Shown: in pieces, positions 5,876 to 52,092 of the stretch
Position numbering within the stretch: position 1 is the first letter of the stretch
Layout of the letters: the number at the start of each line of letters is the position of its first letter
Source of the DNA: Liolophura sinensis
Lineage: Eukaryota
Assembly (NCBI RefSeq): GCF_032854445.1
Contig: NC_088300.1
Coordinates: 60,534,969-60,598,968, forward strand
Direction: 5' to 3'
Length of the DNA stretch: 64,000 nt
Notes under the pieces: model-generated
What the model saw: only the letters and a program-made list of their open reading frames with translations
Database searches by the model: none
Told to the model about the DNA's origin: nothing
Made by a program: the position numbers and the translations under genes

Positions 5876-7212
5876 TACTGGACACACTTGTATAACAGAT
5901 AAATTGGTACCCATAATGTCAGGTTGATAACCTGTAATGCTATTTTTTTAATATCATTAGCCCTAATTAACAGCCGACTGAAAGAATAGTTGAATACTGG
6001 TATGAAACAACTCAAAAGGCAACTTTTCATGAACAACTGAAACCAGTTCACCAAGTCTGCAGAAGAATAATGTTCAACCTTCAAATAGCTTCTTTTGATT
6101 GAATAAATAATAGACGAGGTAGAAAATGTAAATAACATATTGTTAACAAGACGTCCTAACCCAGCACTACCATACACATCTATGTCAAAACAAAGTAGAG
6201 ATCGTCTGATGTTAATTAAGCTTTTAACAGCTGGTAACACTTTTATTGGCATTAAACAGGAGTATTAAGTAAAATTCTTTCATACAACAGAAAACATGTG
6301 GTAGTTGTTAATTTGAAACATGCAATAGCTACCTTTTTGTCACATTTGTACCTAAAAATATTGGCTCATTCTGAAGTTTACAGTTTTGACAAACTGTAAA
6401 GCACAAGTCCTATACGTACCCAGAAACACTGATGAGAAATACTAAATGTCTAAATACTGTGACAGATTTACAACATGAAATGACTCTTCAAGTGAACTCT
6501 AGAAACTGAAAAGCAATGACCACTGGAAACGAAGGCTTTGTACAAGTCCACTGAAGGGGAAGCAACTCTAAAAGATCACTGGGAGAAAACGTCTGTTGTG
6601 CAGTTGTGAACAGGAGTTCCAGGTTTTCACTTTAGAACTTTACCAGTTCTGTCCTTGTATGTGCATCTACACATAAACACCCCAAACCGAGCTTACAGTA
6701 TCATAATCCTGAGGAATTATCTACAGTTTGAGATTATAGCTCCTCTGTGTGCAGTAGCTGGTCCATTCCTGTCTAATTTGTCAGGAGATTTGTGCCTGCC
6801 ACACACGGTCTGGGGTCTGTGTTCATGAAATCTCACTAGGGGATCACCTGCTGTGGGGAAGAAGGTTAAGGTATTCCAGCTATATCCTCGCACATCCCTC
6901 ACACAGATGTCTCTCTGAAGACGCGGACTGATGTGCCGTACTGCTTGACGTGGATATATTTGGTGGATTCTACCTGTGAGATTTTCACCTGTGTGGAAGG
7001 TACAATAATGTCACTGCTCATCAGGTTACAGGAGGGACTGGCCGTCGGGACAGGCTCTGAAAATATACAACATCAAAAATAAGAACAACGAATTCTGAAA
7101 TAATGATTGCAATCAAATCATGGTTATGCATCGTCCTTACCACAGTGGTGAAATAATGATTATATTCAAATCATGGCCACAGTCCTAAATTAAAGGGACG
7201 CAACTCCTTTAG

Positions 7213-7480
7213 ACTGAAAGAATGCATGCTTGGGGTTTAACATTGTACTCAACAATTTTTTCAGCCATGTGATGACAAAGAGTCATTAGGTGTGTGTACA
7301 TATACTTTGTCTTCTAGTGGCAGTCCATGTCGCCAAAGTGCTGGTGACACTCAAGTATCATGACAACAACACAAGACATCACACCCCACCCAGTAACATT
7401 ATACTGACACCGGGCCAACCAGTCCTGTTTCCTTGCTCTAATATGTCGATTCTGAACCCCAAGTGAGGCAACAACATGCA
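7213..7480 (-). mobile_element. SINE-B subfamily B2 copy
   Basis: Shares the ttggggtttaacattgtactcaacaattttttcagccatgtgatgac end and the ...cattatactgacaccgggccaacca... segment with B1, but has a different central region. Paralogous to 16370-16610. Confidence 0.7.
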
Positions 7481-8017
7481 CTATGTACCACAAAAACAAA
7501 ATGATTTATTATAATTAAATTTTCTGATATCTAATAATGCATAAACCTATGCTCTGAGATGGTATGTATACATATTTTCATGTAAACAGGAGTAACGCTT
7601 CAGTTTATTTAAAACCCTGATCACTCCACTTATAAAATTTCAAGCAGAAACTTCATTATAAAATCAGATAAAATGTTGTAAGATTTATATACTTTTGTTG
7701 GGATTCCTTTGGTGTTTGGACTATTAGTGTACTCTTCTATGATTACACTTTTAGCAAACAAATGAGGCACCTTAAACTGTGTCATACAAACTTATTAGTA
7801 ACTTTCAGGAATTTCTTCCAGAACAGCATCTCACAATTACGAGGCGAACTACAAATAATTAATTTTTAGATATTATCTGAAAAAGGACAATTGTGATCAT
7901 TTCTCTCATCAAGTTTGAACATTCATGCAACAGTTCACACAAGATATTGCATTACATACGCAACTATATATCAAGAACAAAGGTAGAATTGATTTCTGAA
8001 AGGAGGTGAGGTGGTAT

Positions 8018-8112
8018 AAACAAAATTTTATTCATTCATTTATTTATTTAACTGATGTTTTATGTCATACTCAAGAATATTTCACTTATACGACGGTGGC
8101 CAGCTTTATGGT
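8018..8112 (-). mobile_element. SINE-A copy, 5'-truncated
   Basis: The reverse complement reads ccataaagctggccaccgtcgtataagtgaaatattcttgagtatgacataaaacatcagttaaataaataaatgaatgaataaa. Confidence 0.7.
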
Positions 8113-8403
8113 TCCAAACCAAACTTTGACCGTGTTAATACACTCACTAACCAATGCATCACAGTCGCATCGCAGGTCAAGCTGCACATGTAGCATTTAA
8201 CTATCAGCATCAGTACTGTCAAAGAGTTGTTTAACAATATAAAACACCAATCAAACATATAAAGTTCTTGTTTTTCAGTTGGCTGTAGCATCTGTAATGA
8301 TACTTTATTACATATACACTCATTCATTGTAAAATAAAATTGTAAAAACAGAAAATCTAAGTGAATATTATGTTTGGACCAATTTAATGCATGATCAGTT
8401 ACC

Positions 8404-8599
8404 CTAATTCCTCAACCCTTTTGCACATGAACGATTACCTGTCAGTGCAGTGTATGCTCATTTTGATTTTGGAGACAAAACTACAATGGTTAGATTGACA
8501 AATGTGAAGGCTTCATAAAAAGTATCAGGTTATATCAGTCTTCATAATATGCTTGAAAAAATACCTTGCAAAAAGGCAAAAATGTTGAAGAATTACAGC
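8404..8599 (+). mobile_element. Interspersed repeat family C (about 200 bp, MITE/SINE-like) copy, in the probable 3'UTR of the INPP5A-like gene
   Basis: Starts ctaattcctcaaccttttgcacatga and ends gaagaattacag. The conserved core is gattttggagacaaaactacaatggtt. Confidence 0.75.
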
Positions 8600-8860
8600 A
8601 TGAGCCAAATCCTGCCTTACTGCCTCACCTCCTTTGTTAAACGATGCCTGGGTCACCACAATACCAAAATCACAACATCAAACAAATTTTTCATCCGAAA
8701 TAAATGGCTTCCCACAGAAAATCACCTCCAGTGAGATATAACAAAGAAAAACAAAATGTGAATCTCATGCAGAAAAAAAAAAAATTAATAATAAAATAAA
8801 CAAAACATCAACTTACGACAACAAGGGATAAAGTCATGCAGCACACTACAACACAAGCAT

Positions 8861-9550
8861 CTAGAGAATACAGCAACAGTGACGTTTTCGGGGACTCTTC
8901 ACAGCATCAGACAACGGCACAGTCTTGGCAACAATCACCCGCTGAGGTTCCAGAGGGGGACCTGCTTTATGCTGGGACTGAATTTCCACATGTATCGTGG
9001 CTGGGAGAATGTTTTTGGAGATTATGACCGACCCCTGGTTAAGATCCTCGCTCTCTCGAGCAGGGGAGTGGGGCGGGTCACTAGGTGTATTAGGTACGCT
9101 GCTAACATCTGTCTCCATATCACTGGCAATTTTCTCAACCGTGACAAAATCCATGGAGGTCCTCCTCTCCACTGATTCCTCAGATGACGAGCTATGATGG
9201 CGCGTACGTTTTGGCCACCTTAACAACACGCCCTCATACTTTCTAACCTGTTGTGCGCATTCTAAAAAGGATTTCTTCTTTTTCAGCAAGGAGGAGTTAT
9301 TATTCTCTGAGGAAGCACTGTCTGATCCTGCACTAGTGTTTAAGCACTTGTGTCTAATACTGGTAAAAAAGTCAGGGGGGAGGAGGTGTTCTTGCTCAAA
9401 TGTTGCATAATCGTGAATTGAAACATTGTCAAGGAGAATGTTGTCCACCTCTTCTCCGTTAACTGAGACAGTCTGAGGACGAGAGATATGACGATTCACA
9501 ACAGGAGAATTACCTTGACCATTCCTCAGATGAAAGAACAAACAGACTGG
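8861..9550 (-). CDS. INPP5A: INPP5A-like terminal coding exon, with a long Ser-rich insertion and a CaaX box (stop TAG at 8861-8863)
   Basis: Acceptor ttttctgttgccctctgcag. Translation starts PVCLFFHL (human PVFLAFRI) and then runs about 200 aa of Ser/Glu-rich low complexity. It ends ...SPRKRHCCCIL followed by stop; human ends HKCCVVQ. Confidence 0.75.
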   Translation of the reverse strand, partial: PVCLFFHLRNGQGNSPVVNRHISRPQTVSVNGEEVDNILLDNVSIHDYATFEQEHLLPPDFFTSIRHKCLNTSAGSDSASSENNNSSLLKKKKSFLECAQQVRKYEGVLLRWPKRTRHHSSSSEESVERRTSMDFVTVEKIASDMETDVSSVPNTPSDPPHSPARESEDLNQGSVIISKNILPATIHVEIQSQHKAGPPLEPQRVIVAKTVPLSDAVKSPRKRHCCCIL

Positions 9551-9579
9551 CTGCAGAGGGCAACAGAAAAGAGAGAGAG

Positions 9580-9725
9580 ACATCAATTATGAACAACTGA
9601 ATAGTGAGGTGGACATCATTTATGAAAAATTGAACTATGAGATGGACATAGTATATGAACCACTGAATTGTGAGGTGGGCATAATTTATGAACAACTGAA
9701 TAGTGAGGTGGACGTCAACTGTAAA
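9580..9725. repeat. Tandem repeat, roughly 33-bp unit (atttatgaacaactgaatagtgaggtggacatc), about 4.5 copies, in the last INPP5A-like intron
   Basis: Repeated ...tgaa.aactgaa.agtgaggtgg.cat... blocks. Confidence 0.8.
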
Positions 9726-9992
9726 GAAGTCCATCATAGAGAGCATATCATTTCCAAAAAATAAATCAAAAGCTGGACAATCTTTATGAACAAAGGAAAT
9801 GTGAAGAGAACATGTATTTTTTGCTGATACCAGAGACTTGCTGTGCTAATCTTATATGCTGACATTCCCAAAACTGATTCTCAGGTTTTTAAACCATATG
9901 GCTTGTTTCAATCTTACAGTATTTAAGTATAGTTAAAAGCTGCTGTGTATATACTACTATCAGTAAACTTACACATGTATTCTCACACTCAC

Positions 9993-10055
9993 CTTGTGGT
10001 CTCCCATACAAATACTCTTTCCTATCAAGTCATAACTCGGTTTATGTTTTTCGTC
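9993..10055 (-). CDS. INPP5A: INPP5A-like penultimate exon (GDHK catalytic motif)
   Basis: Acceptor tctttttgtttcag and donor GTGAGT. Translation DEKHKPSYDLIGKSICMGDHK versus human SEEKVVTYDHIGPNVCMGDHK. The next exon starts with PV, completing GDHKPV. Confidence 0.85.
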
Positions 10056-10901
10056 CTGAAACAAAAAGATCTCAAACAATGCAATGAAATTCTGCACGAC
10101 AGAAAGATTAAAATGATGACCATAATAAAAAAAAAAAAACAACAGCATACATGGATCTATGGTTTTCAGTTCAACAAATTGCAGATATGTCAACCTAAAC
10201 AAATCAGGGAAGTCCACAGGCATGTGCTGTGGAGCAGTTGCAATGTAAACCCATGTGCAGTGAGGGTATCTTTTCACTATATGTTGACTATACATTATGC
10301 CACAGGCATGTTGTGCCTGCTTCATAGGACGTATCCCAGGCCCTTCTCAAGCAATACACATGAAATATCTAAATTTAGTAGAATTTTAGTAAATTTGAAT
10401 GGATTCTGAAATCCAATATGGCCGCAAATGATGTGACCTACATTACCTATTCCGCGTCTCTTGATGTAACTTTTATGCTTCTACCACATATTAAATTTTT
10501 AGATTCCTGCCTACAGCGATATGTCTTCTGGGAATACAGAATTATAATAATAAAAAGGTGACAGTGAAAACAGGCATTTCCAGCAAAGCTGCTGGAACCC
10601 TTAAATACATGATCCTGTGACAATGCTCAACAGTAGATGTACCTACCATACAAAAATGGACGAAAAGCTTCTCAGCTGCATTCCACTAACTTGCCACTTT
10701 GTACAGTAAGCTCTAGTATAGTAACACTTTTGGTATTAAGGGTGTAAGATATATTGCTATGGTCTATGGATACTGGGACATTCTTTCAGCATCCTGCAGT
10801 GAGTCCACCACAGTCAGTCCACCACAGGCACACCAGTGGCTGGCTACTGGCTTGCCTATATTGTGACCTATTAGCCTGATTAGTACCATACTAAACCTTA
10901 C

Positions 10902-11013
10902 ATCCAGCATCAATTGCTTGGCCCCAGGACTTAGCAGGACTCGGTCACACCATGACGGACAGCGGGTTTTCATATAAGACATCCCATCATTCAGATCTTC
11001 ACTGAACGGGTAA
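10902..11013 (-). CDS. INPP5A: INPP5A-like exon carrying the PxWCDR(I/V)L motif
   Basis: Acceptor ttatttattttattatttag and donor GTAAGG. Translation (S)YPFSEDLNDGMSYMKTRCPSWCDRVLLSPGAKQLMLD versus human SYPYSEDARQGEQYMNTRCPAWCDRILMSPSAKELVL. Confidence 0.85.
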
Positions 11014-11112
11014 CTAAATAATAAAATAAATAATAGTGAATACTGCATAAAGGTAAGACTAAAAAGAGAAGCCATATAACATAACCAGGTAGTAAGACAG
11101 GTCACAAGTCAA

Positions 11113-11455
11113 GAGTGAGTGAGTGAGTGCTTGGGGCTTAACGTCGTACTCAGCAATTTTTCAGTCATGTGACGACGAAGGAATCCTTAGGGTGCATGTA
11201 TGTGTAATGTGCCTCCTTGTTGCAGGACGGATTTCCACCGCTCTTTTACTCAGTGCTGCTTCACTGAGACGACTTACCGAAGGCAAGTAAGCTGCCCCAC
11301 CAGAGCCATTATACTGATATGGGCCAACGAGTCGTTGCACTATCCCCTTCATGCTGAACGCCAAGGGAGGAAGTTACAACTTCCTCTTTTAAAGTCTTAG
11401 GTGTGACTCGATCAAGGATTGATCTTGGATCTACCGCTCCCGAAGCGGACGCAAG
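11113..11455 (-). mobile_element. SINE-B (subfamily B1) copy. Tail with a (CACT)n microsatellite at the low-coordinate end and a tRNA-like head at the high end.
   Basis: The plus strand reads (gagt)n cttggggcttaacgtcgtactcagcaatttttcagtcatgtgacgacg...ggacggatttccaccgctctttt...ttaggtgtgactcgatcaaggattgatcttggatctaccgctcccgaagcggacgc. The reverse complement of its start aligns with the SINE-A tail. Confidence 0.8.
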
Positions 11456-11523
11456 TCAAGAAGTGTCAAGTTTATACCTGTTCTTTCCAACAATTAGAGG
11501 AATATTGTTATTGACAATGCAAA

Positions 11524-12021
11524 AAGTTTCAATGTCATGTATTACACACACTAGGCTTCAATGTCCTGTATTACATACACATACACAAGGTTTCAATGTC
11601 ATGTATTACATACACATACACAAAGCTTCAATCCCATGTATTACATACACATACACAAAGCTTCAATCCCATGTATTACATACACATACACAAAGCTTCA
11701 ATCCCATGTATTACATACACATACACAAAGCTTCAATGTCATGTATTACATACACATACACAAAGCTTCAATGTCATTTATTACATTCATATACACAAAG
11801 CTTCAATATCATGTATTACATACACAAAGCTTCAATGTCATGTATTACATACACATACACAACGCTTCAATGTCATGTATTACATACACATACACAAGGT
11901 TTCAATGTCATGTATTACATTCACATACACAAAGCTTCAATATCATGTATTACATACACAAAGCTTCAATGTCATGTATTACATACACATACACAAAGCT
12001 TCAATGTCATGTATTACATAC
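11524..12021. repeat. Minisatellite, 35-bp unit (caaagcttcaatgtcatgtattacatacacataca) with 28-bp variants, about 14 copies
   Basis: Clear tandem periodicity. The long plus-strand ORFs (248, 157 and 142 aa) are frame-preserving artefacts of this array. Confidence 0.9.
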
Positions 12022-12580
12022 TGAAACTTCATAATCTTGCCAAAAAATGCAATCAGCACTGTATTTACAAAATTTTATACTTGCACTCCTTCAACTGGGA
12101 TAAAATAAAAAAAAATTTGTTCTTTCTTTTTCCCCATGTGCAATTTTAAATTGGGATATAAAGTGAACCAAATTTAACAGAATTTCGTATTACCAAGCAA
12201 CATAACTCAGCTTAATTTAAACCTACATAACCATGGATAAGTGTCCTTCAAAAAGTCTATTGCTCTTCCAGGTCACTCCTCTGATCCAATCAATGCTTCA
12301 GAATCTCAACTCAGCACATCAGTCAACTCTGAACCTCTCCAAATAACAGTAGTCAGAGATTCAATGCTTCCAGGATGCTTATTAAGATTATGGATAGAGA
12401 CTGTCCTGGTTCAGACAGACTGCCAAATTTGATCAGCAAACACTGGGTATAAAATGACTCTGATGACCAGGAGATTAAGGGGAGACAACTGAGCTAAATA
12501 CTGAACATCATACTTTTACATACAAAATGTCACAAGGAACTTTGTGAAAGACACATGCATTATATTCAAAGAGAACAAAC

Positions 12581-12654
12581 CTTGGTTGGAAGCTGATATC
12601 ATATTCATGTAACTTGTCCTTGAAAGCATGCATCTCAGTGTCAAACTGGGAAAG
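12581..12654 (-). CDS. INPP5A: INPP5A-like internal exon
   Basis: Acceptor cttgtttttcag, with an alternative AG 9 nt downstream. Donor GTTTGT. Translation LSQFDTEMHAFKDKLHEYDISFQP(+AG) versus human LLEFDKELSVFKDRLYELDISFPP. It ends in phase 2, and the AG|T Ser codon is completed by the next exon. Confidence 0.75.
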
Positions 12655-14184
12655 CTGAAAAACAAGACAAATATTTAATAATGAGCCCAGATCCTAGGAT
12701 TGGATAGCAACGCTACCTACAGTTAACATGCATGAATATTTTTTCACCTGAAATGTGGCTGCTTAAGCATTTGATGCAACACTAAAAAATCTTCACTTCC
12801 TGTATTTTACCTAAAGTTTGGTATGGAAAAACGCAGTTTTAGATGCCCATAGAGGGCTTAAAATGATGACTTTCTGTTACCGACACTTACTTTTTCTGAC
12901 AATTGTAACTGTGAACTGGAGCAGATGTCCACATTATATCAACTCTATTGTCGTTTTTATTTTTTTCCCCTGCCCACCTTTCAATGAACTACTATGTTTG
13001 GATCCACTTTGGCTCCACTTTTGTTTCTTTAGTTGCTTAATGTGGTGCTGTTGACATTTTGTTGATCTTTCCAGCACCAGCGAGTAAGTCAGTGCTATCC
13101 AATGGCATAAGTTGTGACTGAAAAAACTTCTGGGTAATCAATCAGTTTTCACACTGAAGATATTAGAAGCTTGCAAGATCCATCTTTCTAAAGGAGACTC
13201 AAGAGACCCTCTACATGTAACAGTTACCACTTCTCTTACAAGTTCCTGTAAGAATAAAACCACATGGTACAAGTCCTGAACAATTCATTATCAGCCTTGA
13301 GTGCATAATGTTGATGTTGTAGTGATTTTAAGAGATGGGCTGTTCATTACAGACCATGAAGCCTCTTAACTCTGCCGCAATACCATAAAACTGCCACATA
13401 GTTTTATTGACCCTTTCCATGACCCTCTTTAGTACTGTCTAAAACGAGAGCCTGGAGTGCATTGTCTGATCTCCGTTAAGCTTTACTTCCGTTAAAAAAC
13501 GCAAATAAACCAATACAGGAGTAAACAATTTATCCATCCATTTGAGTCTGCCCATCCTATACATTACAGGGAAAACAAATGAAACTGGTAGCCCCAGAGA
13601 GCTAGCAACTGAAGCAGCCTCGTTCTGAGTATCAGCCTACATATTTTATCAATTATATATGGACACATGTACAGATATCATGCTGCTCTTACACATACAT
13701 ACATGTGAAATATTTAGGACACTGATATCAGCATCAGAATATAGAAGGAAAGTAACTCAGGATTTGTAATGATAGCACAAACATAATAGCTGAAATACAG
13801 AATGATAAAAGGACTTCAGTATTCAGCATTACTTTCCTTCTATCTTATGCAAAACTGATCTGTGGAACCACTGGTATCAGCGTCAGAATACAACATTACT
13901 GACTCCTTTTATTTGGGGAGAAGTTATTTTCATTAAAATGTCACAGTTACAATGTATCAGTAAGGTAGCCTTTCTAGCATTGTAAATGTACATGTACATA
14001 CAGGCTAACAAAAACCATCCAGTTTTTGAACAATGATAAAACCTCAGTCCACTTCCTCCAAACAATGCATATGGAAGAATATTACGAAACAATTCAATCT
14101 TCACCAGTTGCAGGGTTTCGCAAATGCTACAAATGTGGAAGCAGAGACAATTATTACTTTTTATTTTAATATATTTGGAGGGGG

Positions 14185-14212
14185 GGAAGAGGGAGGGGGG
14201 GGGGGGGTGTGC
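14185..14212. repeat. Poly-G / G-rich tract (gggggggaagagggagggggggggggggg)
   Basis: Homopolymeric G run. Similar G-runs followed by gtgtgctct.atccact occur at 16700-16745; plain G/C runs occur at 20650-20675 and 61281-61310. Confidence 0.8.
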
Positions 14213-15454
14213 TCTCTATCCACTGTTTACTGAAGCCAGGGATGTCAATATGTAAAGATATTGAAGTTAAAATGTTGAAGATTTCCTCAGAACTCTTCAT
14301 ATAATCTTTTCCTTTAATTCACTATCATAATTTAGGGAACTTTGTTCAAGATAATAAACTCAATATGTTTATCTGTAACACTGGCTGACTACACAAACTA
14401 CGATGTGACAGTTATTTTTCAATTACAGAGAGAAGAACGAACAAATGAGAGCATGTAGAGAAAACATCATTGCTAGAAGGCATGAGAAATACATCTGAAT
14501 TAATAACATCAATTGTCAGCATACACACACACACACAAACATGGATTTATCATTATGAAAGCTCAGGTTAAATTGTGCCTTTGCTCCGTAAAGCGTCTGT
14601 GTATTGAGTATGTGTTAACCAAATCATCTGTTAATCAATGTTCCCTCTGACAGATTTTCTCAAGCAGGGCAGAAAGTGTTTGGTGAAAAAAGAATAAATG
14701 TTAGCTAAGGGTTTCCATGAAAGAACTATAAAACTGATCCAAGCTAAAGCTCTTGAGGTAATAAAATTAGGGCGTGTATGAACAGCTGTTGTGATTCTGC
14801 AAACTGCTCAGCATCATGCATGCACACACACGCACACACAGAAGAATTTAGAGTTATGTGTACAGAAATCACCAGCAGATGGATGGGCTCCCGAGACACC
14901 CTGCCCACACTCAGGTGAGGTCAGCTCAGGTAAGGGCCACGCAAATCATTAACGAGCTAATAAATCTATACCTGTCAGGTGAAATCAATACTAAGGTATA
15001 ACTGTGCAAGGCTGAAGTAGAAGCAGGTCGAAATCCAATTTATTCTACAGGTAATCGGGCTTAGTTCAAAGGCATGGATTGACGTCATTAGAGGTAATTG
15101 AAGGTGTGACATGTACCCTCCGCGCCCTCATGATTGGGTATTACATCTCGGGACACGAGATTACAGTCTATTTTCCACCCACCTAAAAACAGATGGTAAC
15201 TGAAAAAGCTCCCACAGAGGGCAGATTATTCACTCAAGAGCATGTATAGCTCCTTATCTTAATGCCACTTAATTAAACATGATTGCCGAGACAACATGCA
15301 CCTAAGAACAACAGCTACTGCTTGAAAATGAATCCCAAATCCAATTACATGTCTTTGAAAGGTCTGTGGCCTGTAGGCAGTAGGCTATACTTTGCTCAGA
15401 CCGTACTCCAATGTTAAAATTTTATTATGAACTGTATTGAGTGGAAAATGTCTA

Positions 15455-15560
15455 TTCATTTTATTTGATTGGTGTTTTACCCCGTACTCAAGAATATTTC
15501 CCTTATTATACGATATTGGCCAGCACTATGGTGAGTGGAAACCAAGCAGCATGTTAGTCT
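15455..15560 (-). mobile_element. SINE-A copy, 5'-truncated, inverted relative to the 15735-15905 copy
   Basis: The reverse complement carries ...ccatagtgctggccaatatcgtataataagggaaatattcttgagtacggggtaaaacaccaatcaaataaa. Confidence 0.7.
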
Positions 15561-15734
15561 AAATTCTGCTGGCAAGAATGCGTGAAACAAGGGAGTACAA
15601 ATAATAGTCTTTCTATAGAGATACATACTCGTCATACAGATTTCATGGATCTTTTTGTCTCATTTCACTGTACTATACTTTTTCATGTATTCAGTTAATA
15701 TGATCCTATATCCACACAGCATACATGTACATAT

Positions 15735-15905
15735 GTTTCATTTCCTCTCCGGCCGTATGTGGGAAGGTCTGTCAGCAACCTGCGGATGGTTGTGGGTTTC
15801 CCTAGGGCTCTGCTCGTTTCCTCCCACCATAATGCTGGCCGTTGTCGTATAAGTGAAACATTCTTGAGTACGGTGTAAAACACCAATCAAATAAACAAAT
15901 AAACA
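15735..15905 (+). mobile_element. SINE-A copy (tRNA-derived SINE, body plus conserved tail)
   Basis: ...ggaaggtctgtcagcaacctgcggatggttgtgggtttccctagggctctgctcgtttcctcccaccataatgctggccgttgtcgtataagtgaaacattcttgagtacggtgtaaaacaccaatcaaataaacaaataaa. Confidence 0.8.
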
Positions 15906-16369
15906 AATACATATATTTCATACATGCAATGGTTATATGCAGCCCAGAAAACCCATGTTTAAGTCCACCCAAATTTCATCGCAAAGGCCTTCAGAATATA
16001 AAAAAGTTTATAATCTACCTGGGTGACACTTACAAGTGTCAATCAAACCAGGAAATGTAAACAGATAAAAATTACATAACAAGAAGCCTGTTCATAACAA
16101 ATCATATTTCATAACTTTTCAGGACCTTTAAAGTGATAAAGTTTATCAGAAACACTGATAGCTAGAAAAACTACTTAAAAATGAAAGAGTGTAATTCACT
16201 CGAGCTATTTCCAGAAACCAATGGACTTTTAAACGCATGTGAAAATCAACCAGACATAGTTACCCATTTGCCATTGCTGCTGAATACTTCAGAGTGTCTT
16301 TCATGGTGATCAAATGCTTTGGTTTCTATGGTGAGAAGGATCTGAAATAATGGATTCAACAATACATTT

Positions 16370-16610
16370 TCTTGGTTTTTTACATCGTACTCAACAATTT
16401 TTCAGTCATTTGGTGTGTGTACATATACTTCACGTGGCACCGCAAGTCCATTCTGCCAAAGTGTTGCTGCTACTGAAGTATCATGCCAAAGACATCAGAC
16501 ACGACGCTTCACCCAGTCACATTATACTGACACCGGGCCAGCCATCCGATTTCCTTGCTCTATCCTCTCAGAGCTGAGCGCTAAGCATCAAGTCTGATTT
16601 TGAACGCTTT
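16370..16610 (-). mobile_element. SINE-B subfamily B2 copy
   Basis: Sequence tttttacatcgtactcaacaatttttcagtcat...gtgtgtgtacatatacttcacgtggcaccgcaagtcc...cattatactgacaccgggccagccatccgatttccttgctct. Confidence 0.7.
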
Positions 16611-17229
16611 CGGTATAGCCCAACCTAACACGTCAACATTAAATCATCGTGATACAAATTTATCTAGAATAACTCATGACCACTAGCTTCTGACCACTTG
16701 GGGGGGGGGGGGGGGAGGGAATGTGCTCTAATCCACTTTTAAATGACTTGGTGCTGGCCTTGAGTCAGCAAGTTTGCAGAATAACGGGTACAATGTATTC
16801 TGCAAGATAAGCTGATTTCCTACACATATACTTCAAACCTTATACAGTCCTAGAAGTGAAATAATCCTGAGCATGGCCTAAAACACCAATCAAACAACAA
16901 TATTTTTTTCATTTATTTCACTGTTCAATGCTAAATGCAAGAATATTTCATTTATATAATGATAGCTAGTGTTACGGGTGGAAGAAATCAGAGTGCTTGC
17001 AAGGGGTATCCCACAGACCCATGACAAATACACACAGCAGACAACCTTCGTCACACATGATATTAAGATATACACCCCACATCGATGGAAAGCAGTGGTC
17101 ATCAACAAACGTTAGACTACACAAATGGCCGCACAAACGTTGTTGACAGGTTAGTGTCATCCCTTGCCATACACAAAGAGAGCAAGGAACGGAATCCACA
17201 AGTAGCTAAACAGATCCATCACATAAATT

Positions 17230-17410
17230 ACAACTGATATTTATTTATCTCATTGGTGTTTTATGCCTTACTCAAGAATATTTCACTTATACAACGGCTG
17301 CCAGCATTCTACGACGGCTACTATTCTGGTGGGAGGAAACCAGGCAGAGCCTGGGGGAAACCCACAACCATCCGCAGGTTGCTGCAGACATACAGCTGGA
17401 AAGGAAGCCA
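17230..17410 (-). mobile_element. SINE-A copy
   Basis: The reverse complement matches the family body and tail (cctgcggatggttgtgggtttcccccaggctctgcctggtttcctcccaccagaatagtagccgtcgtagaatgctggcagccgttgtataagtgaaatattcttgagtaaggcataaaacaccaatgag...). Confidence 0.8.
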
Positions 17411-17955
17411 TACAACTGATGTTAAAGTCACCACAAGTGTATCATTTAGGGTGTATTCATTGTTGTACTGCCTTTCTTAATATCACAGAAAGAAATCTGA
17501 AGCTTATTATTTGTAATCTGATATCATCATGATCATGATCATGGTCCCGGGTTCTTGTCATTGTTCACATCTCACCTTGCCATTGTTGTCCTCATCAGTG
17601 TAAACGATCTTGCTCAGCTGGTCTTTGTTCCCTTTCTGGTGGTGAACTTTGGCTTTATTTGTTAATTCCTGCTCAAATAAAAAGACTATTCTGAAATAGC
17701 ATTTAACACCATAATTGGGAACATTTTATACAAGTGTAGCACATACACGTACTCAATTAAAACGAATGTTTGTAATGTAAAAAAGACACAAAACATACCT
17801 GCACAAGATATCTTATATCAAGGCGGAAATTGAAATCCCCAAATATAAAAAGAGGGACCTTTTCATACTTGTCATTTTCAAATCTGAAAACAAAAAGATA
17901 AAATGGCCATCACAATATTAATATGGATAACTGTTTCCTGAAATTCAGATTCATG

Positions 17956-18106
17956 CTGGTGTGAGTTGAGGTAGCCATCTTTAGAATTTTATCCAATCAA
18001 ACATGTTGCCCGGCCTAAGCTGTGATGCAGCCTTTGTCCAATCACTCCTTGAAGTGACATATGAGAACACAGAACTACTAAAGATGTCATTTTGAGATCG
18101 TTTACA
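17956..18106 (+). repeat. Upstream copy of a roughly 150-bp direct repeat pair (TRIM-like, TG...CA ends)
   Basis: Near-identical to 19101-19257: gctggtgtgagttgaggtagccatctttagaattttatcc.atcaaacatgttgcccggcctaagctgtgatgcagcc...gatcgtttaca. The pair lies in direct orientation about 1.0 kb apart. Confidence 0.6.
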
Positions 18107-19100
18107 GAAATTAAAAATATCAACCTAATCAATAATTCACTTGTTACTTCATTACTTGGAATTATTGTACGAGACACACTTGAAAACAAAGGTATAATAC
18201 TGTTAATTAATACGACTTTAAAAATGAAAGTAAATTATTGCAATTTTACCCCACTATGAATTAACCATAAAATCTGATGACAAATGCATAACTCTAGCTA
18301 TAATTTTTTTTATCTAAAGAGCCAACATTCCAATGTTGACACTAATAGGCAGGCTAGCCAGTTCACTAATCTGATTTCGCAATAAGGAACGGTGATCCCA
18401 TCAAAGTAGCACTGTAATGGAATCACAAACGTGGAGCTCATTAGCGTGTCATAACATATTGATCTTCTTGTGTCCTGCAACTAAGCAGAAGACAAGCAAA
18501 CTATTAGCTGGAACGGCAAAACAAGGCAGGCAAAATGAGGACAGAAAACGCCTTGAGAAGTGGAGACAAATTTAACCCTTAAATAGCAAGGTTTGCCCCA
18601 TGTGCTCAGTAACAGTCCGTTTGATCCAGGGGGAATGCTTAGGCAGATGACTGAATGACCAGTGGTTGACCTTAAAACACTGGTCATTAGAGGAGTGAAC
18701 ATTTGAGACTGATCCTGATGGCAGATGACCTCTATTTGTCTGTTAAACTATCACCATTAAGGTTCGATTTATGAGGCACTAAATTGGCCAACCATTTTGG
18801 CTCTAGGGATAATCTCCATTCCATGAGGCCTGGTAGTGCAATTTGGAAAGGGACAATTAAGCTGGAGACTTAAGAAGGGTATTTTCTTGGAACGACTTGG
18901 AGAGACCCATGTCCCAGTATCATGAAGCATTGTCTTAGACTTGAGTCAGATTTAGTCTTAAAGGACAAGACAGCACCTGGCTAAAATATATTTCAATCGA
19001 AAGGAGGATATTCAAGCTTTCCAGAAAGTATCATAGTTTATTATTTTAATGAGATTTCAGTGAATAACATGTAGAACAAAATGACAATACTGCACAAAGG

Positions 19101-19257
19101 GCTGGTGTGAGTTGAGGTAGCCATCTTTAGAATTTTATCCTATCAAACATGTTGCCCGGCCTAAGCTGTGATGCAGCCTTTGTCCAATCACTCCTTGAAG
19201 TGACATATGAGAACACAGAACTACTACTTAAGATGTCATTTTGAGATCGTTTACAAG
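19101..19257 (+). repeat. Downstream copy of the roughly 150-bp direct repeat pair
   Basis: See 17956-18106. It is preceded by the purine run acaaaggg. Confidence 0.6.
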
Positions 19258-19322
19258 GGCCATTTGACAAAGTGTTGTGCCATGTCACAAAGTGTCGTGC
19301 CATTTCACAAAGTGTCGTGGGG
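19258..19322. repeat. Short tandem repeat, roughly 21-bp unit (gccatttcacaaagtgtcgtg), 3 copies
   Basis: Sequence gccatttgacaaagtgttgtgccatgtcacaaagtgtcgtgccatttcacaaagtgtcgtgg. Confidence 0.8.
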
Positions 19323-21769
19323 CCTGACTGTATCATTTACTGACCACCACAGATGTAAAATCAGTTCATTTACAAGCCATGTAATAATCAACAACTATCA
19401 CAAATTATACCAGACAGTAGCATACCGTCTCGGCCCAAACTGCATTCATCTCCCCATACACATTTTTTGTCCTTCATTTCAGTGTCTAGTCAACAGTTTC
19501 TAAATAACAAATATCAGAGTCAGTGCAAAATTCATTAGGGATGCCGAAAGTTTATGGGAATGAGAAGACGGCACCTCACCGGACAACGCTTAAAATTAAT
19601 TAAATCTTATGATATAATTTTTCCTTCTCTGGATTTATTACTGAAGAATTTAAATTTTACTCCTGCTTCTTTGTCGCATACAAGGGATGTTCTTTCTGTT
19701 TTCTTTGACAAAATACAGTAAAATTATTGAAATGCTGTGTTCAAGCCGATGTGCTTTCTCTGACGTCCGCAATAACCAGGTCAGCACTGCTTTCATCTTA
19801 CAAAATGGAAGTATACAATCCAGTTGAATGCACAGATCAGCCTCAATAGTGCTTAGATTTATTTCCATTTGTTTGAGAATTGAACATGAGTCTAGTATGT
19901 CTTCCAGTATGTGCAATTTCCAAGAAAACTATTCATCACTTGGGCCTTCATTGTCGAGGTCCACAGTTTTTATCTGCAATGGGCTACTGCTTAGACTATT
20001 GTACAGAAAATACCTTTGACGTTAGAGAGCTAGAGTTAACGTGACCCCACCTTGTTCTCAATAATGGAGATGTGCTGATTCCGTGTCAACATAAAATTTC
20101 ACTTAATTTTTACTGGGTTGAAAAAAGTCTTAAAAAAATATTTAATGTCGGTTTAAGATACTTTGAATGGTAGTCCTTCAGCGGACATAAACATTAGCCA
20201 GGTGCTGTCTTTCACTTTAACTTGCGATAATATTCCTGAATTTATATTTCAGCTTTTGATTTTTAAATTTTTCAAGAAAGCTTAGGAAAACTCTTGGTAT
20301 CACCATAAAAATCTGTCAGGTAATTATAATCAAAAATAATACAAAAATAACAGTTTATACTTTGGTATCTGAAACTCAACACACATGTGACATTATTTGT
20401 TAGAAGGCCACTACACAAAAAAAATCTACCCTAAGAAAATCATTTAACAGTGTAAAAAAGTCTTTAAAATGACCTCAGAAACTACATGCATCACTACTGG
20501 TCCTTCCATATTTGACACCCAGAATTCCACATAGCTCACCTTTGGAGAGTGTGCATAAGAGCTTGTTGTCGGTTACCACAGTAGAGAGAAGGACTCTGAA
20601 AACGAGGAGATATATTAATTATATTAATTATTCCTTTGGTTTTTTTTTTTGGGTTTTTATTGGGGGGGGGGGGGTGTATTGCTTTCCTTTTTATTTTTTT
20701 CGGAGAGGGGTGAGGGCAGTATATTCCTCAGAAGATCTCACATTCTCATATTCTCAGTCTTTTTGCTCTCCCATTGCCAACATATGTATAGTGCTGCTTC
20801 AATGGAACAACATGCTGAGGACACCGCCCATGTCGCATCTGGTACAGTACAGTTGACTACTAGAAGCACCTGATATCTATCACTTGACATCGATTGCCAG
20901 GTGAGTTAGAACCAAGATTAAAACTTCCAGTCTTTAAGGTATGACTCATGCATACATGGGCTGAACTCAGGTCTTCAAACATAACTTATGTACATGTATG
21001 TACAAATTTATATAAAACTATATAATTATGCAAATAATCTATATACAGAAATATGGAAAGGACTGCCACACTGTTTCTCTGTCTTCATCATTGGGCAGAA
21101 GACAGCAGCATTTCATGCTACATGTAGGTGCATTAATGTAACAATAAATTAATTTAAATGCAGATTACAACTTGCAATTTGTTAATGTGAGGGTGCACAC
21201 TCAACACCTGAGAAATGAATGTATTACATATTAAACACTTTTTTCACCACATTTACAGAATATTTCTGAATTTTTTGGACCCAAGGAACATGAGGTTTAG
21301 AACCACAATAAAATTTACTGGAATTAATTTAAATAATTCCATTACTTGATATGTATACCCATAGTTTTGTATCCTAATCAGAAAGCATTTCACACTGTAT
21401 AGCCTGAAGCATTTTCATTTCCATATTAAAGGCCAATTTGAAGCATGACCAATACATCTATAAACAAAATAAGATCACAAAAGTTAGAAGCCACCACTTT
21501 TCAATAAAACACTGGATACAAAACTTGATTTTCCAATATTGCAGATGATTTTTCCATATTGTCTATTTCTTACGAAAACTTGCATTATTCATAGCATGGA
21601 TCTTTGTGAAGTTCTAGTAATTTCCAGATTGAAAACTTTGCTGGTGGGGGCTATTATCTACATGCTGGTAGTATGACAATGTTTTAGTAATGTGAACATC
21701 TATGTGATACACTGTACAAATAATCCATAAATGTGCAGCTGGTAAGTAGACACTTCAACTCAAATGCAG

Positions 21770-22860
21770 GAGGAGTCTTGGTGACCAAGGTGGTTAGCAA
21801 TGACCCAGGAGCCTCAGTGGCTGAGGTGGTTAGCAATGATCCAGAAGACTCAGTGACCGAGGTGGTCAGCAAAGACCCAGGAGCCTCAGACGCCAAGGGG
21901 GTTAGCAATGACCCAGAAGACTCGGTTGCCAAGGTGGTTAGCAATGACCCAGGAGCCTCAGTGACCGAGGTGGTTAGCAATGACCCAGAAGACTCAGTGA
22001 CCGAGGTGGTTAGCAATGACCCAGGAGCCTCAGTGAGCGAGGTGGTTAGCAATGACCCAGAAGACTCAAGTGACTGAGGTGGTTAGCAATGACCCAGGAG
22101 CCTCAGTGACCAAGGTGGTCAGCAAGGACCCAGGAGCCTCAGTGACCGAGGTGGTCAGCAATGACCCAGGAGCCTCAGTCGCCAAGGCGGTTAGCACTGA
22201 CCCAGGAGCCTCAGTGACCGAGGTGGTTAGCAATGACCCAGAAGACTCAGTGATCAAGGTGGTTAGTAATGGCCCAGAAGACTCAGTGACCAAGGTGGTT
22301 AGCAATGACCCAGGAGACTCAGTGACCAAGGTGGTTAGCAATGACCCAGAAGGCTCAGTGAACAAAGTGGTTAGCAATGACCCAGGAGCCTCAGTGACCG
22401 AGGTGGTTAGCAATGACCCAGAAGACTCAGTGACCGAGGTGGTTAGCAATGACCCAGGAGCCTCAGTGACCGAGGTGGTTAGCAATGACCCAAAAGACTC
22501 AGTGACCGAGGTAGTTAGCAATGACCCAGGAGCCTCAGTGGCCGAGGTGGTTAGCAATGACCCAGGAGCCTCAGTGACCGAGGTGGTTAGCAATGACCCA
22601 AAAGACTCAGTGACCGAGGTGGTTAGCAATGACCAAGCAGACTCAGTGACCAAGGTGGTTAGCAATGACCCAGGAGCCTAGTGACCAAGGTGGTTAGCAA
22701 TGACCCAGGAGCCTCAGTGACCGAGGTGGTTAGCAATGACCAAGCAGACTCAGTGACCAAGGTGGTTAGCAATGACCCAGGAGCCTCAGTGACCAAGGTG
22801 GTTAGCAATGACCCAGGAGCCTGAGTGACCGAGGTGGTTAGCAATGACCCAGGAGCCTCA
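21770..22860 (+). repeat. Satellite array of about 30 tandem 36-bp units (ggtggttagcaatgacccaggagcctcagtgaccga), derived from an internal SINE-A segment
   Basis: Period of 36 nt with minor variants (ccagaagactc / ccaggagcctc). The unit is similar to the SINE-A internal region gttagca..caatgacccaggagcgtctcacc. The array runs directly into a SINE-A body and tail at 22861-23010. Confidence 0.9.
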
Positions 22861-23010
22861 AGTCCAGCTCATGCTGGCTTCCTCTCTGCCCGTAAGTAGG
22901 AAGGTCTGCCAGGAACCTGCAGATGGTCGTGGATTCCCACAGTCTACCACAGTCATATATGTGAAATATTCTTGAGAACTGTGTAAAAACACCATTGAAA
23001 TAAATAAATT
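22861..23010 (+). mobile_element. SINE-A body and tail contiguous with the 36-bp satellite
   Basis: Sequence agtccagctcatgctggcttcctct...gtgaaatattcttgagaactgtgtaaaaacaccattgaaataaataaa matches the family consensus seen at 15735-15905 and 63878-64000. Confidence 0.8.
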
Positions 23011-24477
23011 TATAAAATGCAAGACAACTATGTGTTAGTCAAATTAATGACTAAATATACATGTAAACATTTTGTTTATTTAGATTTGCAACAAGGCATA
23101 ATAAGTACTGGTAATCATCCACAATCCTAGTTAGGTAAAACAATACTTACAGGACTGCATGGCCACGATGTTAGAGGCATCATGAAACAAGTGTATGTTC
23201 ACCAGGTCAAAAACACTGAAAGTAAAGATTTCAAAACCACGAATAACAAGGCTATATCACAGGGCTAAAAGTAGATTTGGAGAATGGAGAATGAAGAATG
23301 AAATAAACAATAATGGCCACATCAGCAATATTTCAGTGATATCATGGTGGACTTGAATGGAGAAGATTAAAGCCAAATAGATTTATTTACTTGATTGGTG
23401 TTAAATGCTGTGCTCAGGAAGTTTGCACTTGAGCAATAAATATAAGATCTAAGGTCAAAGGAAACTGATGTGCCCAGAGTAAACCTTAGCCTTAAGCCAG
23501 GCAACCGGGACCTTAACTTTATTTATTTAATTATTTAAGTGTATTTATTTCATTGGTGTCTCTATGTCTGAAAACAGGAATGTTCCAATTAAATTATAAA
23601 TCTCTTATTCCTACATGTACCAAATGTACCTAACAAATGTCCTGACATTAGATGCTGAAGAACCCGCAAGACCTGGATTGTAACTCAATGCTTGGTAGTG
23701 AATCCAGAGTGGCTAGAACTAAGCTGTAGTCCAATCAACCAAGGGGCCGATCCCACTTAAGTCTGACTTAAGTTGAATTATGATCTGAAAGCTTGTTTTT
23801 TGGGCTTTAGAAGTTAAAATTTTGCCAGTCCATACCTGTTATTGATATTCCACCTTGTTCTTAAGAATCCTTTTCTAGACCACTTGAACTACGGAAAAAA
23901 ATTATCAAAGGCTTCATAAATTACAGGTGAGTACCTAACACCAAATCACAAAAATTCTATGTCTAATGAAATGTCTAATATAATAATCCAATTCATATCA
24001 AGTAATAAATACACTATACCTAGAAGATAACAATTTAAGAGTGTAAATCCTTTGATTTGTAAGTCTTTGATGTGGACAAATCTGTGGGTACATGATGTAT
24101 AGGTCCTTAGGAAATCAGACATGCAGACATTAAAGTAAGAATTAGGGTTATTGTCTGGGAAATGTATACCGTTTATACTGTGGAGAAGTGACTTACTTAT
24201 ATTCTTTCAGTCCATTGCTTCATGGAAGAACAGTAGTTAAGTTATTTACAGTGCTATTCATAAATACTCCTATTAGAACACAATGAACTGGGTTAAGCTC
24301 AATATGTACACAAATAAATAAGGCAGTACTCTTTATCAATGTCACGTACTGTTAACCTAGTCCTCAACTCATAATTTATGCCAGAAGCATTACAATGGCA
24401 TTTTTGCAAGAAGATACATTACATAATTTCTTACTGATTAAACCACATGACCTAAATAACATACACAACACACCTAC

Positions 24478-24549
24478 CTCTGGGAAGAAATGTTGTGGAA
24501 ATTTGGCCTTCTCTTTTGTAGCAACATTTTCAATGTTACCGGACAACAC
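24478..24549 (-). CDS. INPP5A: INPP5A-like internal exon (phase 0 to 0)
   Basis: Acceptor tcgtttatcttag and donor GTAGGT. Translation VLSGNIENVATKEKAKFPQHFFPE versus human EIYSDTLESTPMLEKEKFPQDYFPE. Confidence 0.7.
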
Positions 24550-24958
24550 CTAAGATAAACGAATTTAATGAAAGCATGTATAACAAAATTTCAAGCTGAA
24601 GTCTTGTTTATGTGAGAAACCGAAAACTCATCACTTATGAGATGCAAAGTAGATGTTCAGCATTTTCAAGGTTTTCTAACTCTCTAGCTAGCATGCAGTA
24701 GTTCTCAATTATTCTAGTGTTAAGCAGTTTACCAGTGTACCATGCCATCTAATTAAGAAATAAGTGATTTCTTCCTCAAATAATGGACACCTTCCAATAA
24801 ATGCAATATACATATACGTGTACTACAACATGTCACACCTAGAAATGGTTTATTTCTACATGTATTGAGATGTATCATAAATCTCCACATTAAGCTAAAA
24901 CCTTAAAACAACTTTAACAGGCCTGCTTCAACTAAAACAGAATTTGTAATAAAATAAA

Positions 24959-25300
24959 AGAAAGAATGAATGAGTCAGTGCTTTATGGTTTAACATCGTA
25001 CTGAACAATTTTTGAGTCATATGATGACGAAGGAATCCTTAGAGTGCATGTAATGTGCCTCCTTGTTGCAGGACGGATTTCCACCGCTCTTTTATCTAGT
25101 ACTGCTTCACTGAGACGCCTTACCGAATGCAAGTAAGCCGCCCCACCCGAGCCATTATACTGATACAGGTCAACCAGTCATTGCACTATCCCCTTCATGC
25201 TGAACACCAAGCGAGGAAGTTACAACTTCCTCTTTTAAGGTCTTAGGTGGGACTCGCCCCAGAATTGACCCTGGATCTCTACCAACTATGCTAATGGGGC
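24959..25300 (-). mobile_element. SINE-B (B1) copy
   Basis: About 90% identical to 11113-11455 over its length (…ggacggatttccaccgctcttttatctagtactgcttcactgagacgccttaccgaatgcaagtaagccgcccc...). Confidence 0.8.
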
Positions 25301-27633: not shown

Positions 27634-27927
27634 TGACAACAGTCACTTCCTGGTTTAATGGTTACTTCAATACCTTCAACACAGTAGAGTTATGAGACCA
27701 ACATAAAATCATATAAGCTGTGGGATGTTGGCAGCCGTATTTTGATGTGGCAAATGGGAGTATTAAACTGTGAACAGAGAAAAGTGATCTTGTGTTGTGA
27801 ACTCAGTGATAAGTTATAAACAGTGACAATGGTAGCAGTCCGTGGTTCCTGAAGGCTGTCAACTACAAGCAACTGCTGCTGTTTGAGGAAGACTATTTTG
27901 AAAACCTGGAAAAATAAAACTGAGATT
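27634..27927 (+). repeat. 5' LTR of the copia-like element
   Basis: Direct repeat of 30655-30950. The first roughly 230 bp are highly similar and the distal part is diverged. Confidence 0.6.
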
Positions 27928-28995
27928 TGGCGCCCAGTGACAGACTTATCATAGGCTAAACAAGCATTGGCAGTCTCCCTTTCTCTGACTTGTAAAGCCA
28001 GGCAACAAGGGATCGAAATACAGACTGACCATTTGGATAAGATGGAGGAATGGCGTTGTTGATTGACAAGCTGGACTCAGTATTTCAGAAGGAAAAGAAA
28101 GATTCCGCGTAATGACACTTACATGGCTGACTATATAATGGAGTTCAAGCAAATATAAAACAAGGCTAGAAAGCGCAACATGGCCTTACCTGATGCAGTT
28201 CTTGCAGTTGCTAGATAATGCAGGCCTTAGTATAAAAGAGTGACTGCTTGCTATTACTGCCTGTAATGAGCTGGTACCTTTGAATAGGTATAGAAAATGT
28301 ATCCGATGTGTAGTATGTCAAAGTGTGTTTCACTGGACAAAAGAATTCTGTGAATATCACCAGTGATGTAAACAGTACCGAAGAGGAACTGACAGAAGGG
28401 GAAACAGTAGCATGCAATACCCCATTTTTGCAAAAGAACAATATAGTGACTATGAAGTGTTTGTAGTAGAGGCCAGATCATGTGTTGTGACCGATACCGC
28501 ATATACCAGAGTTGTATGTGGTGCCAAGTCCGTTCCTTGCCAAGCCTAAAGCAGTTTAAATTTGGTGATAAGAAAGTAATACAGTCAGTCAAACAGGTGA
28601 CAACACCAGCACAAAGAGGTAGTACAACCTGTCAAATTTAAACAGAAGTTGTGCCAACAAACATTTCATTACTTTTGAGTAAGAATTCACTCAAGAAAGC
28701 TTGTACAGTATTAGACCTTAAAAATGACAAGGTAAAGATGTTTGATGAGCGTTTAGATCTAGAATTTACATCCAGTGGACATTACTGTACTGACAAAGTT
28801 TAGTTAGAGATAGTGATTCAGGTACATTACATTCCGCCACAGTTTTAAGCAGGGCTGGTAAAGCCACAGGTAATCTGAATAAACTATGGTATAACTTTCT
28901 GTATTCAAAGCCGTCAGATAGAGCTGGTGTAAAAGAATCTGTTGACTTCAGTAGAGGAACAGAATTTGAAAAGATAGAACAAATTAACCAAACTG

Positions 28996-30379: not shown

Positions 30380-30654
30380 TGGCTTGTGGACTGTGAGCAA
30401 TCTGTGATTTCCAGGGATTGTGTCACAGTCATTTCATTCTGTTCATTTGACACTGCTACATGGACCTACATGATGTTCTTGATGACAGTGATTTCTGTGT
30501 TAGTGATATTGAACTCTGTGTTCATGTCAATAGTAATTATATTGTAATCCCATTGCCTTTGCTTATGCACACTTACAATAAACACAGACTTTTCCTTTGG
30601 GCTGTAAAGTGAAAGTCATTTTATTTCTTATGTTCCTTTTAAAAGAGGTGAGTT

Positions 30655-33900: not shown

Positions 33901-33989
33901 CACAGGACGGCTTCATAAGTGGAAGAAACAAGCTTCCATCAGTTTCTGCCAATAAGAAACTGATTTTTCACATAAAAATTTGCTGTCAA

Positions 33990-38338: not shown

Positions 38339-38350
38339 ACACACAGCCAC

Positions 38351-52068: not shown

Positions 52069-52092
52069 ACATATATATATATATATATATAT
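52069..52092. repeat. (AT)n microsatellite
   Basis: Sequence atatatatatatatatatatatat. Confidence 0.9.

Follow-up and report, generated by a model that had tools for sequence, protein, structure and literature searches.

The 64,000-nucleotide stretch of the Liolophura sinensis genome studied here (RefSeq assembly GCF_032854445.1, contig NC_088300.1, positions 60,534,969 to 60,598,968 of the forward strand; hereafter the window) carries on its minus strand a gene that its sequence identifies as INPP5A, and analyses of the tail exon of this gene, 9550..8861, indicated that this is very probably a molluscan-type gene whose composite 3′ end can give two C-termini. One, in the predicted isoform A, is a long tail that ends in a CaaX box; the other, in the predicted isoform B, is encoded by a separate downstream exon and ends in Arg-Glu-Thr-Ser-Val (RETSV; the exon is referred to below as the ETSV exon). 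The features that make up this 3′ end are as follows, a slash marking a splice junction here and below:

9514..9550, minus strand: 37-nt exon core used by both isoforms, encoding PVCLFFHLRNGQ plus 1 nt
9508..9513, minus strand: internal alternative 5′ splice site, CAAG/gtaatt, phase 1, after codon 12, which the long isoform reads as Gly-Asn
8864..9513, minus strand: read-through extension, which encodes tail residues 13-229 of the 609-aa isoform A
8861..8878, minus strand: Cys-Cys-Cys-Ile-Leu codons (8878-8864) and TAG (8863-8861), giving the CaaX box C606-C-I-L609 preceded by an extra Cys at 605
6899..7056, minus strand: alternative last exon of isoform B (444 aa), encoding (E)PVPTASPSCNLMSSDIIVPSTQVKISQVESTKYIHVKQYGTSVRVFRETSV with the ETSV codons at 6913-6902, and TGA at 6901-6899

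The identity of the gene, which had been proposed in an earlier reading of the DNA letters without database searches (the sequence-only reading), was borne out by the protein assembled from its exons. A Pfam scan of this protein found PF22669 (Exo_endo_phos2; E = 1.4e-14, with a score of 54.8 bits where the cutoff is 27) and no domain besides it, and the 380-residue catalytic part contained the signature motifs FIFGDFNFRLD and CPSWCDRVLL. Catalytic identity was 66-69% to gastropod INPP5A (Biomphalaria, Patella), 60% to that of Lingula and 42% to that of Myotis, and all the named matches were INPP5A or type I inositol-1,4,5-trisphosphate (IP3) 5-phosphatases. We assign the gene on sequence as an INPP5A orthologue, a type I IP3 5-phosphatase predicted to remove the 5-phosphate from Ins(1,4,5)P3 and Ins(1,3,4,5)P4.

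The tail exon was found exactly where the sequence-only reading, which gave no strand, had placed it, starting PVCLFFHL (PVCLFFHLRNGQGNSPV / PVCLFFHLRNGQGNSPVVNRH) immediately after an exon that ends in GDHK. Its AG acceptor (ctctgcag/CCA at 9551/9550, with the AG at 9552-9551) opens a run of 229 sense codons (9550..8864, minus strand) that ends SPRKRHCCCIL (AVKSPRKRHCCCIL) and is closed by TAG at 8863..8861. Candidate polyadenylation signals (AATAAA or ATTAAA) follow this stop at distances of 472, 551, 812 and 828 nt. The upstream neighbour (10055..9993, minus strand) ends ...GKSICMGDHK/gtgagt, and the two exons are contiguous in the correct phase. The residues that follow GDHK number 229 in the window and 26 in Pongo INPP5A (P0016), an excess of 203 aa, which agrees with the roughly 200 extra residues first reported.

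A frame of 230 codons had also been judged unlikely to arise by chance, and our analyses were in accord with this. From stop to stop the tail frame measures 241 codons. When the window was simulated 200 times with a first-order Markov model, the longest frames averaged 147 codons and peaked at 225, so that no simulation reached this length. The proposition that the frame is a chance, repeat or transposon ORF (open reading frame) unrelated to the gene draws on the presence in the window of repeat-derived pseudo-ORFs of 203-263 codons, and the sole window frame longer than that of the tail (263 codons, plus strand, 11358..12146) is indeed produced by a 35-bp tandem repeat (11523..12021). However, a tandem-repeat scan detected no tandem repeat within 8861..9550, the frame continues that of the GDHK exon, and its homologues were all INPP5A tails. 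Together, the simulations and the repeat scan ruled out a chance or repeat origin, and we attach practically no weight to this explanation. The long frame is, on its sequence features, assigned as real coding sequence for a conserved, CaaX-ending INPP5A tail.

To this assignment the comparison with a close relative added evidence of selection. The partner was a Logan genomic contig (L001, from SRR26493809) that aligns over the tail exon as well as the exons at 11013-10902 and 10055-9993, with the following outcome:

Tail exon: 690 nt, 91.7% identity, 0 gap columns
Upstream intron: 200 nt, 78% identity, 33 gap columns
Sequence 3′ of the stop: 346 nt, 82% identity, 64 gap columns

Over codons 13-229, which lie beyond the internal donor, the ratio of non-synonymous to synonymous divergence (dN/dS) was 0.127, with dS at 0.31, and the 57 substitutions counted over the whole 229-codon exon were distributed 9/11/37 by codon position. 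The low ratio and the excess at third positions indicated that the long option is under purifying selection.

Searches for homologues of the tail gave two very different pictures. A word-indexed search recovered just two, the L001 ORF and an ORF (P0002) that is 37% identical, ends CVVL and comes from the Meretrix genome run SRR32575146 (PMC12229300), and on this basis the tail had appeared nearly unique. That view was overturned by an exhaustive profile search with a hidden Markov model built on the window tail, the L001 ORF and P0002, which at a cutoff of E <= 1e-3 identified 81 cluster representatives (47 of them at E <= 1e-10), gastropods, bivalves and a brachiopod included. The frame and its terminal CaaX persist across the 81 representatives at 20-37% identity. 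The same tail was found in Biomphalaria, Elysia, Tegillarca, Mya and Lingula, and the long-tail proteins seen on a full catalytic domain were:

Biomphalaria glabrata XP_055893397.1, Biomphalaria pfeifferi KAK0070526.1 and Lingula anatina XP_023929969.1
Elysia marginata GFS27244.1, Tegillarca granosa KAJ8317086.1 and Mya arenaria WAR21819.1

An alignment of 48 sequences showed a fixed order of blocks: PV[YFC]L...x-G-x-G-[NK]; [LI]S[IV]NGE; NIHD[FY]AxFExE..LxPEF..SI[KR]; SF..[IV]A..V...E.VL..WP.R.R.RHHSSSSED; and Cys-x-Cys-a-a-X. Every one of these blocks is present in the window tail, in order, and RWPKR.R.RHHSSSSE is identical between the window tail and Meretrix. A second subgroup of the family has ALKHYSHRSDSE (or the HYSHRSDSE type) in place of the RHHSSSSE block. 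Two conserved blocks of the window tail are:

9347..9472, minus strand: tail residues 27-68, TVSVNGEEV...VSIHDYATFEQEHLLPPDFFTSIRHK, in which I45 and H46 are invariant and conservation reaches 90% or more at S29, N31, G32, E33, D47, F51, F61 and I65
9173..9271, minus strand: tail residues 94-126, SFLECAQQVRKYEGVLLRWPKRTRHHSSSSEES, a predicted helix followed by a basic/Ser/acidic cluster, in which conservation reaches 90% or more at S94, F95, A99, H119, S121, S123 and E124

AlphaFold2, run with the 48-sequence alignment, gave the tail a mean predicted local distance difference test score (pLDDT) of 62 and was confident only over residues ~21-70 (peak 92) and a helix at 95-111 (pLDDT 77-82). Within residues 27-68 (pLDDT 75-92) a hairpin was predicted at 28-35 and a helix at 59-68, and residues 120-229 were predicted to be disordered.

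These data bear on the possibility that the region is a single constitutive terminal exon that acquired, between PVxLxF and the CaaX box, a disordered low-complexity insertion rich in Ser and Glu and specific to its lineage, essentially as first described. Such an insertion would accommodate the continuity of the frame to the CaaX box, the predicted disorder of residues 120-229 and the mere 26 aa that follow GDHK in vertebrate INPP5A. To call the tail Ser/Glu-rich and of low complexity overstates its composition, with Ser at 13.8%, Glu at 7.4% and low entropy (<=2.2 bits) in 6% of 12-aa windows, limited to residues ~70-98 and 114-133. The tail has two segments predicted with confidence and carries its conserved blocks in molluscs and in a brachiopod. 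The conserved internal donor, the downstream ETSV exon and the spliced form found in relatives, all described below, speak against an insertion as well, and we consider it very unlikely. Since molluscs and a brachiopod share it with its conserved blocks, the tail is on its sequence best described as a conserved module and not a lineage-specific insertion. It is found in lophotrochozoan annotations and is of a kind that is annotated and, as far as a limited literature search shows, undescribed.

The C-terminus of the long frame has the features of a prenylation signal: a Cys four residues from the end, aliphatic Ile at a2 and a C-terminal Leu, the class used by geranylgeranyltransferase I, as had been noted in the sequence-only reading. 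A CaaX end was present in nearly all of the 71 retrieved ORFs (C-a-a-[L/V/I/M/F/Q]: CVVL, CVLL, CVIL, CVVI, CVLF, CVVQ), usually with a further upstream Cys, and the two C-terminal Cys columns were invariant across the 48 aligned sequences. RalA ends in CCIL and brain Cdc42 in CCIF; boxes of this CCaX kind are geranylgeranylated, and their second Cys can be palmitoylated. The terminal tetrapeptide of the window protein, CCIL, is that of RalA, a likeness between what we take to be unrelated protein families. In human INPP5A, C409 is farnesylated and C408 palmitoylated, both lipids being required for membrane targeting and for the control of calcium oscillations, and a change of the X residue (Q412L) would switch the prenyl group from farnesyl to geranylgeranyl (PMC12450637). 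By analogy, Cys606 of isoform A is predicted to be geranylgeranylated, because Leu at X directs geranylgeranyltransferase I, and Cys605 or Cys607 may be palmitoylated like human C408. The linker that precedes the box contains, in RTRHHSSSSEES, a Ser cluster made up of a conserved R-x-R-x-x-S and a Ser-acidic stretch. We take this cluster to fit the consensus sites of basophilic kinases and of CK2, which would make its serines candidate phosphosites, and the long linker is probably phospho-regulated, as far as its motifs can suggest.

The sequence-only reading had treated the tail exon as a simple terminal exon with no internal intron, and in this it did not stand, as a conserved donor lies 37 nt into the exon and the RETSV exon 1.8 kb downstream of it. 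The internal donor is the top-scoring GT of the long exon by position weight matrix (PWM), with a score of 7.76, the other GT donors of the gene scoring 4.5-12.2. In each of the six genomic loci examined (the window, L001, L002, L004, L005 and L006), exon nucleotides 38-39 are a GT, and the retention of the donor at one nucleotide position explains the nearly invariant Gly-[Asn/Lys] of the protein alignment. The acceptor of the ETSV exon (tattttcag/AG; tattttcag/AGCCTGTCC...) lies at 7056, downstream of the CCCIL stop and in phase with the donor at 9514, and the gene thus runs on for 1.8 kb to 6899. Downstream of the CaaX stop, the window, L002, L004 and L006 each have an ETSV exon whose acceptor is in phase 1; the L001 contig is too short to reach that far. 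The exon is also present in Dreissena polymorpha DPMN_165986 and in several further ORFs, and RETSV, which fits the class I PDZ pattern x-[S/T]-x-[V/I/L]-COOH, was identical in every homologous exon retrieved. One of the six loci, L005 (ENA ERZ24900295, 8001-8831), is a more divergent member of the family, with the donor ACAG/gtaatg and the CaaX tail CVCILM.

Splicing from the core to the ETSV exon was seen in relatives. L003 (SRR25158131), a Logan contig of 1223 nt that comes from another species, is a spliced one, as its product is colinear with window exons that span 11 kb. At its junction, ...KNGT/AKSNE, the product after GDHKPVYLLLYIKNGT reads AKSNED...LLTTDIIVPSTQVKISQVDTTKYIHVQHNGASVRVFRETSV-stop and ends RETSV, and its last 41 residues match window 7024..6902 (minus strand) with 78% identity. 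Two RefSeq isoforms of B. glabrata diverge at the same place: X2 (XP_055893414.1) reads ...FFHIKPGK/APTPKAELSALPGTSDIIIPSTQVKISEVDTTRYIHIRQGESSTRVFRETSV (KPGK/APTPK...RETSV), and X1 (XP_055893397.1) reads ...FFHIKPGKGKSPAED...CCSCVLF (KPGKGKSPAED...). Judged by their sequences, X1 and X2 are the same isoform pair as that inferred for the window. An internal splice that removes the Ser-rich segment had been named in the sequence-only reading as contrary to its proposal. Such a splice exists for one isoform in relatives, where L003 and B. glabrata X2 lose the whole segment. The long CaaX isoform is annotated too, in X1, and its frame is under purifying selection in the window gene.

If only the short ETSV isoform were real, the long frame would be open intron or 3′ sequence, or the outcome of unproductive translation of a retained intron. 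Consistent with this, conservation of the ETSV exon far exceeds that of the tail (at the 78% seen with L003, and with ~40 aa identical among several bivalves), and the sole clearly spliced transcript contig, L003, is of the short form. Nevertheless, the dN/dS of the tail, its third-position excess and its freedom from indels over 687 nt between gapped flanks are at odds with non-coding sequence, as are the upkeep of frame and CaaX box across the 81 representatives and the annotation of long-tail proteins in five named genera. In addition, nonsense-mediated decay would not be expected for the read-through transcript, because its stop would sit in the last exon. We therefore regard a short-only gene as quite unlikely, and both C-termini are probably used.

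A third type of isoform was observed in Lingula X2 (P0155), Mya WAR21819.1 (P0069) and P0122. These differ from the window in that they use a second donor to splice the tail core to the ETSV exon, so that the core is kept through RHHSSSSED or HRSDTE and the distal tail and CaaX box are dropped. For a second in-exon donor of this type, PWM scoring of the long exon of the window found no phase-1 GT above 4.

The two C-termini would arise as follows. When the internal donor, a site of weak to moderate strength, is skipped, 217 further codons would be read to give isoform A, 609 aa in length and ending HCCCIL, whose tail would be mostly disordered and would comprise the SVNGE-IHDYAxFE-PxF hairpin/helix, an amphipathic helix and then RTRHHSSSSEE. 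Its lipids would tether the catalytic domain to the membrane via a linker of ~215 aa with two conserved docking or regulatory motifs. When the internal donor is used, the 37-nt exon would be joined in phase 1 to 7056..6899 to give isoform B, 444 aa in length, which would have no lipid anchor and whose RETSV end would direct localisation through PDZ scaffolds; the binding of PDZ domains by this end is inferred from its motif.

Beyond the window gene, we tentatively propose, with a little less than even confidence, that these features represent an old, conserved INPP5A splicing switch. It would set a prenyl (and palmitoyl) anchor on a long tail against a PDZ-ligand RETSV end, the two being mutually exclusive, with the donor G/GTAA lying inside the codons for Gly-Asn/Lys, which are nearly invariant. 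The tail would be a conserved module for which no domain model exists (SINGE, NIHDYAxFE, PEF, the amphipathic helix and the RHHSSSSE phospho-cluster), and vertebrates would have reduced it to 12 residues. The switch could operate in molluscs and a brachiopod at the least; the more divergent members hint at a wider spread.

Several observations weigh against the composite 3′ end assigned to the window gene. The internal donor has no G at +5, and L005 has the donor and no ETSV exon within 8 kb downstream. The use and the ratio of each isoform in this species are extrapolated from relatives, and the XP_ isoforms in RefSeq come from computational modelling. At a1 the CaaX box has a Cys, an unusual residue there, and the tail gave no meaningful match when the window tail and 48 family members were compared with Pfam and a sequence-profile search of the PDB was made. 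Lastly, a canonical in-frame donor is missing after exon 9 (23215..23152), all other exons being intact, and this leaves a slight chance that the gene copy is defective.

In its comparison with vertebrate INPP5A (human Q14642, C-terminus ...GDHKPVFLAFRIMPGAGKPHAHVHKCCVVQ) the window gene showed both likenesses and differences. The catalytic domain is orthologous (42% over ~390 aa, with GDFNFRLD and PxWCDR), the exon boundary after GDHK is followed in both by PVxLxF...G.GK, and both have a CaaX box with an extra Cys before it (...PGAGKPHAHVHKCCVVQ in vertebrates), the last likeness being conceptual. Unlike the vertebrate protein, that of the window has ~203 extra residues with conserved blocks between G.G[NK] and the CaaX box, Leu at X (geranylgeranyl type) instead of Gln (farnesyl only), and a conserved alternative last exon ending RETSV. 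Predicted mammalian isoforms with other ends do exist, such as cat X5, which ends ...RALRETSP. Homology of this end with the ETSV exon was considered and not established, the junction phase being incompatible.

The architecture of the window gene is the same as that of B. glabrata X1/X2 and of Lingula anatina (XP_023929969.1, XP_023929970.1). In B. glabrata the X1 tail runs from a KPGKG-K read-through through SINGE, NIHDYAVFE and WPGR..RHHSSSSED to CCSCVLF, and X2 diverges right after KPGK to end ...STRVFRETSV; the catalytic domain shares 66-67% identity with that of the window protein. Tail identity to Biomphalaria and Lingula is ~30-35%, however, the tail of the window protein being the shorter one and carrying RNGQGN instead of KPGKGK. 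As the snail and brachiopod RefSeq models already predict the isoform pair, the window gene is a further example and not the first of its kind.

Fragments of INPP5A with [S/T]-x-[V/M] ends were also seen elsewhere: Drosophila sulfurigaster X4 ends ...LLKETTV, other ORFs end ...ESTAM, and the coral Orbicella ends ...EYLTSV (among P0033, P0036, P0043-P0050, P0025 and P0014). A PDZ-ligand-like end of INPP5A may, on such sequences, be ancient.

INPP5A terminates IP3 and calcium signals. If the proposed switch is true, the site of IP3 degradation would be set by splicing, and the invertebrate tail of ~200-300 aa and the PDZ-type end suggest a more elaborate, splicing-controlled IP3 turnover outside vertebrates. 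The function of human INPP5A depends on lipid-mediated membrane targeting (PMC12450637). A limited literature search found no paper describing the long tail or the isoform switch. For annotation, the ‘terminal exon’ contains a conserved splice donor that is probably functional, and the gene ends at 6899.

The gene model itself spans 59968..6899 (minus strand, ~53 kb) and has 18 exons. Its 16 upstream exons were placed by tblastn, the queries being INPP5A of Patella, Myotis and Helobdella together with the product of L003; exon junctions were assigned manually and verified by translating the joined exons. The exons common to both isoforms are:

59968..9993, minus strand: 16 shared exons, encoding INPP5A residues 1-380
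Shared exons 1-8, minus strand: 59968-59906, 46711-46670, 40748-40648, 27308-27221, 26803-26740, 26099-26068, 24549-24478, 23888-23836
Shared exons 9-16, minus strand: 23215-23152, 20595-20540, 17883-17799, 17668-17576, 16341-16264, 12654-12581, 11013-10902, 10055-9993

GT donors follow 15 of these 16 exons, and every junction is GT-AG with the exception of exon 9 (23140-23160), whose donor at 23152 reads ...CAGTCC/tgtaagta (ATGCAGTCC/tgtaagta). A perfect donor, CCT/GTAAGT, lies one base further on and would produce TAG when joined to the sole good acceptor (ttttcag/AGTCCT; 20590-20600). This donor would be accounted for by a single additional T, which may be an assembly indel.

The introns and flanks of the gene contain several repeats. 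A 33-bp tandem repeat (4.2 copies, 9579-9717) lies in the intron just upstream of the tail-exon acceptor, 28 nt away, and the intronic repeat at 11523-12021 has periods of both 35 bp and 134 bp. An intronic 36-bp tandem repeat (30 copies, 21781-22860) is open on both strands and yields pseudo-ORFs of 203-214 codons (...TEAPGSLLTTSV... repeated). Many copies of a short dispersed repeat are scattered through introns and flanks (15755-15895, 17244-17305, 22858-22935, 36864-36962, 62419-62498, 2995-3098 and 8039-8078), and this repeat is also found in the contig of the close relative, L001, at 1395-1588. A second repeat family is represented by similar ORFs at 25433-24986 and 11455-11062.

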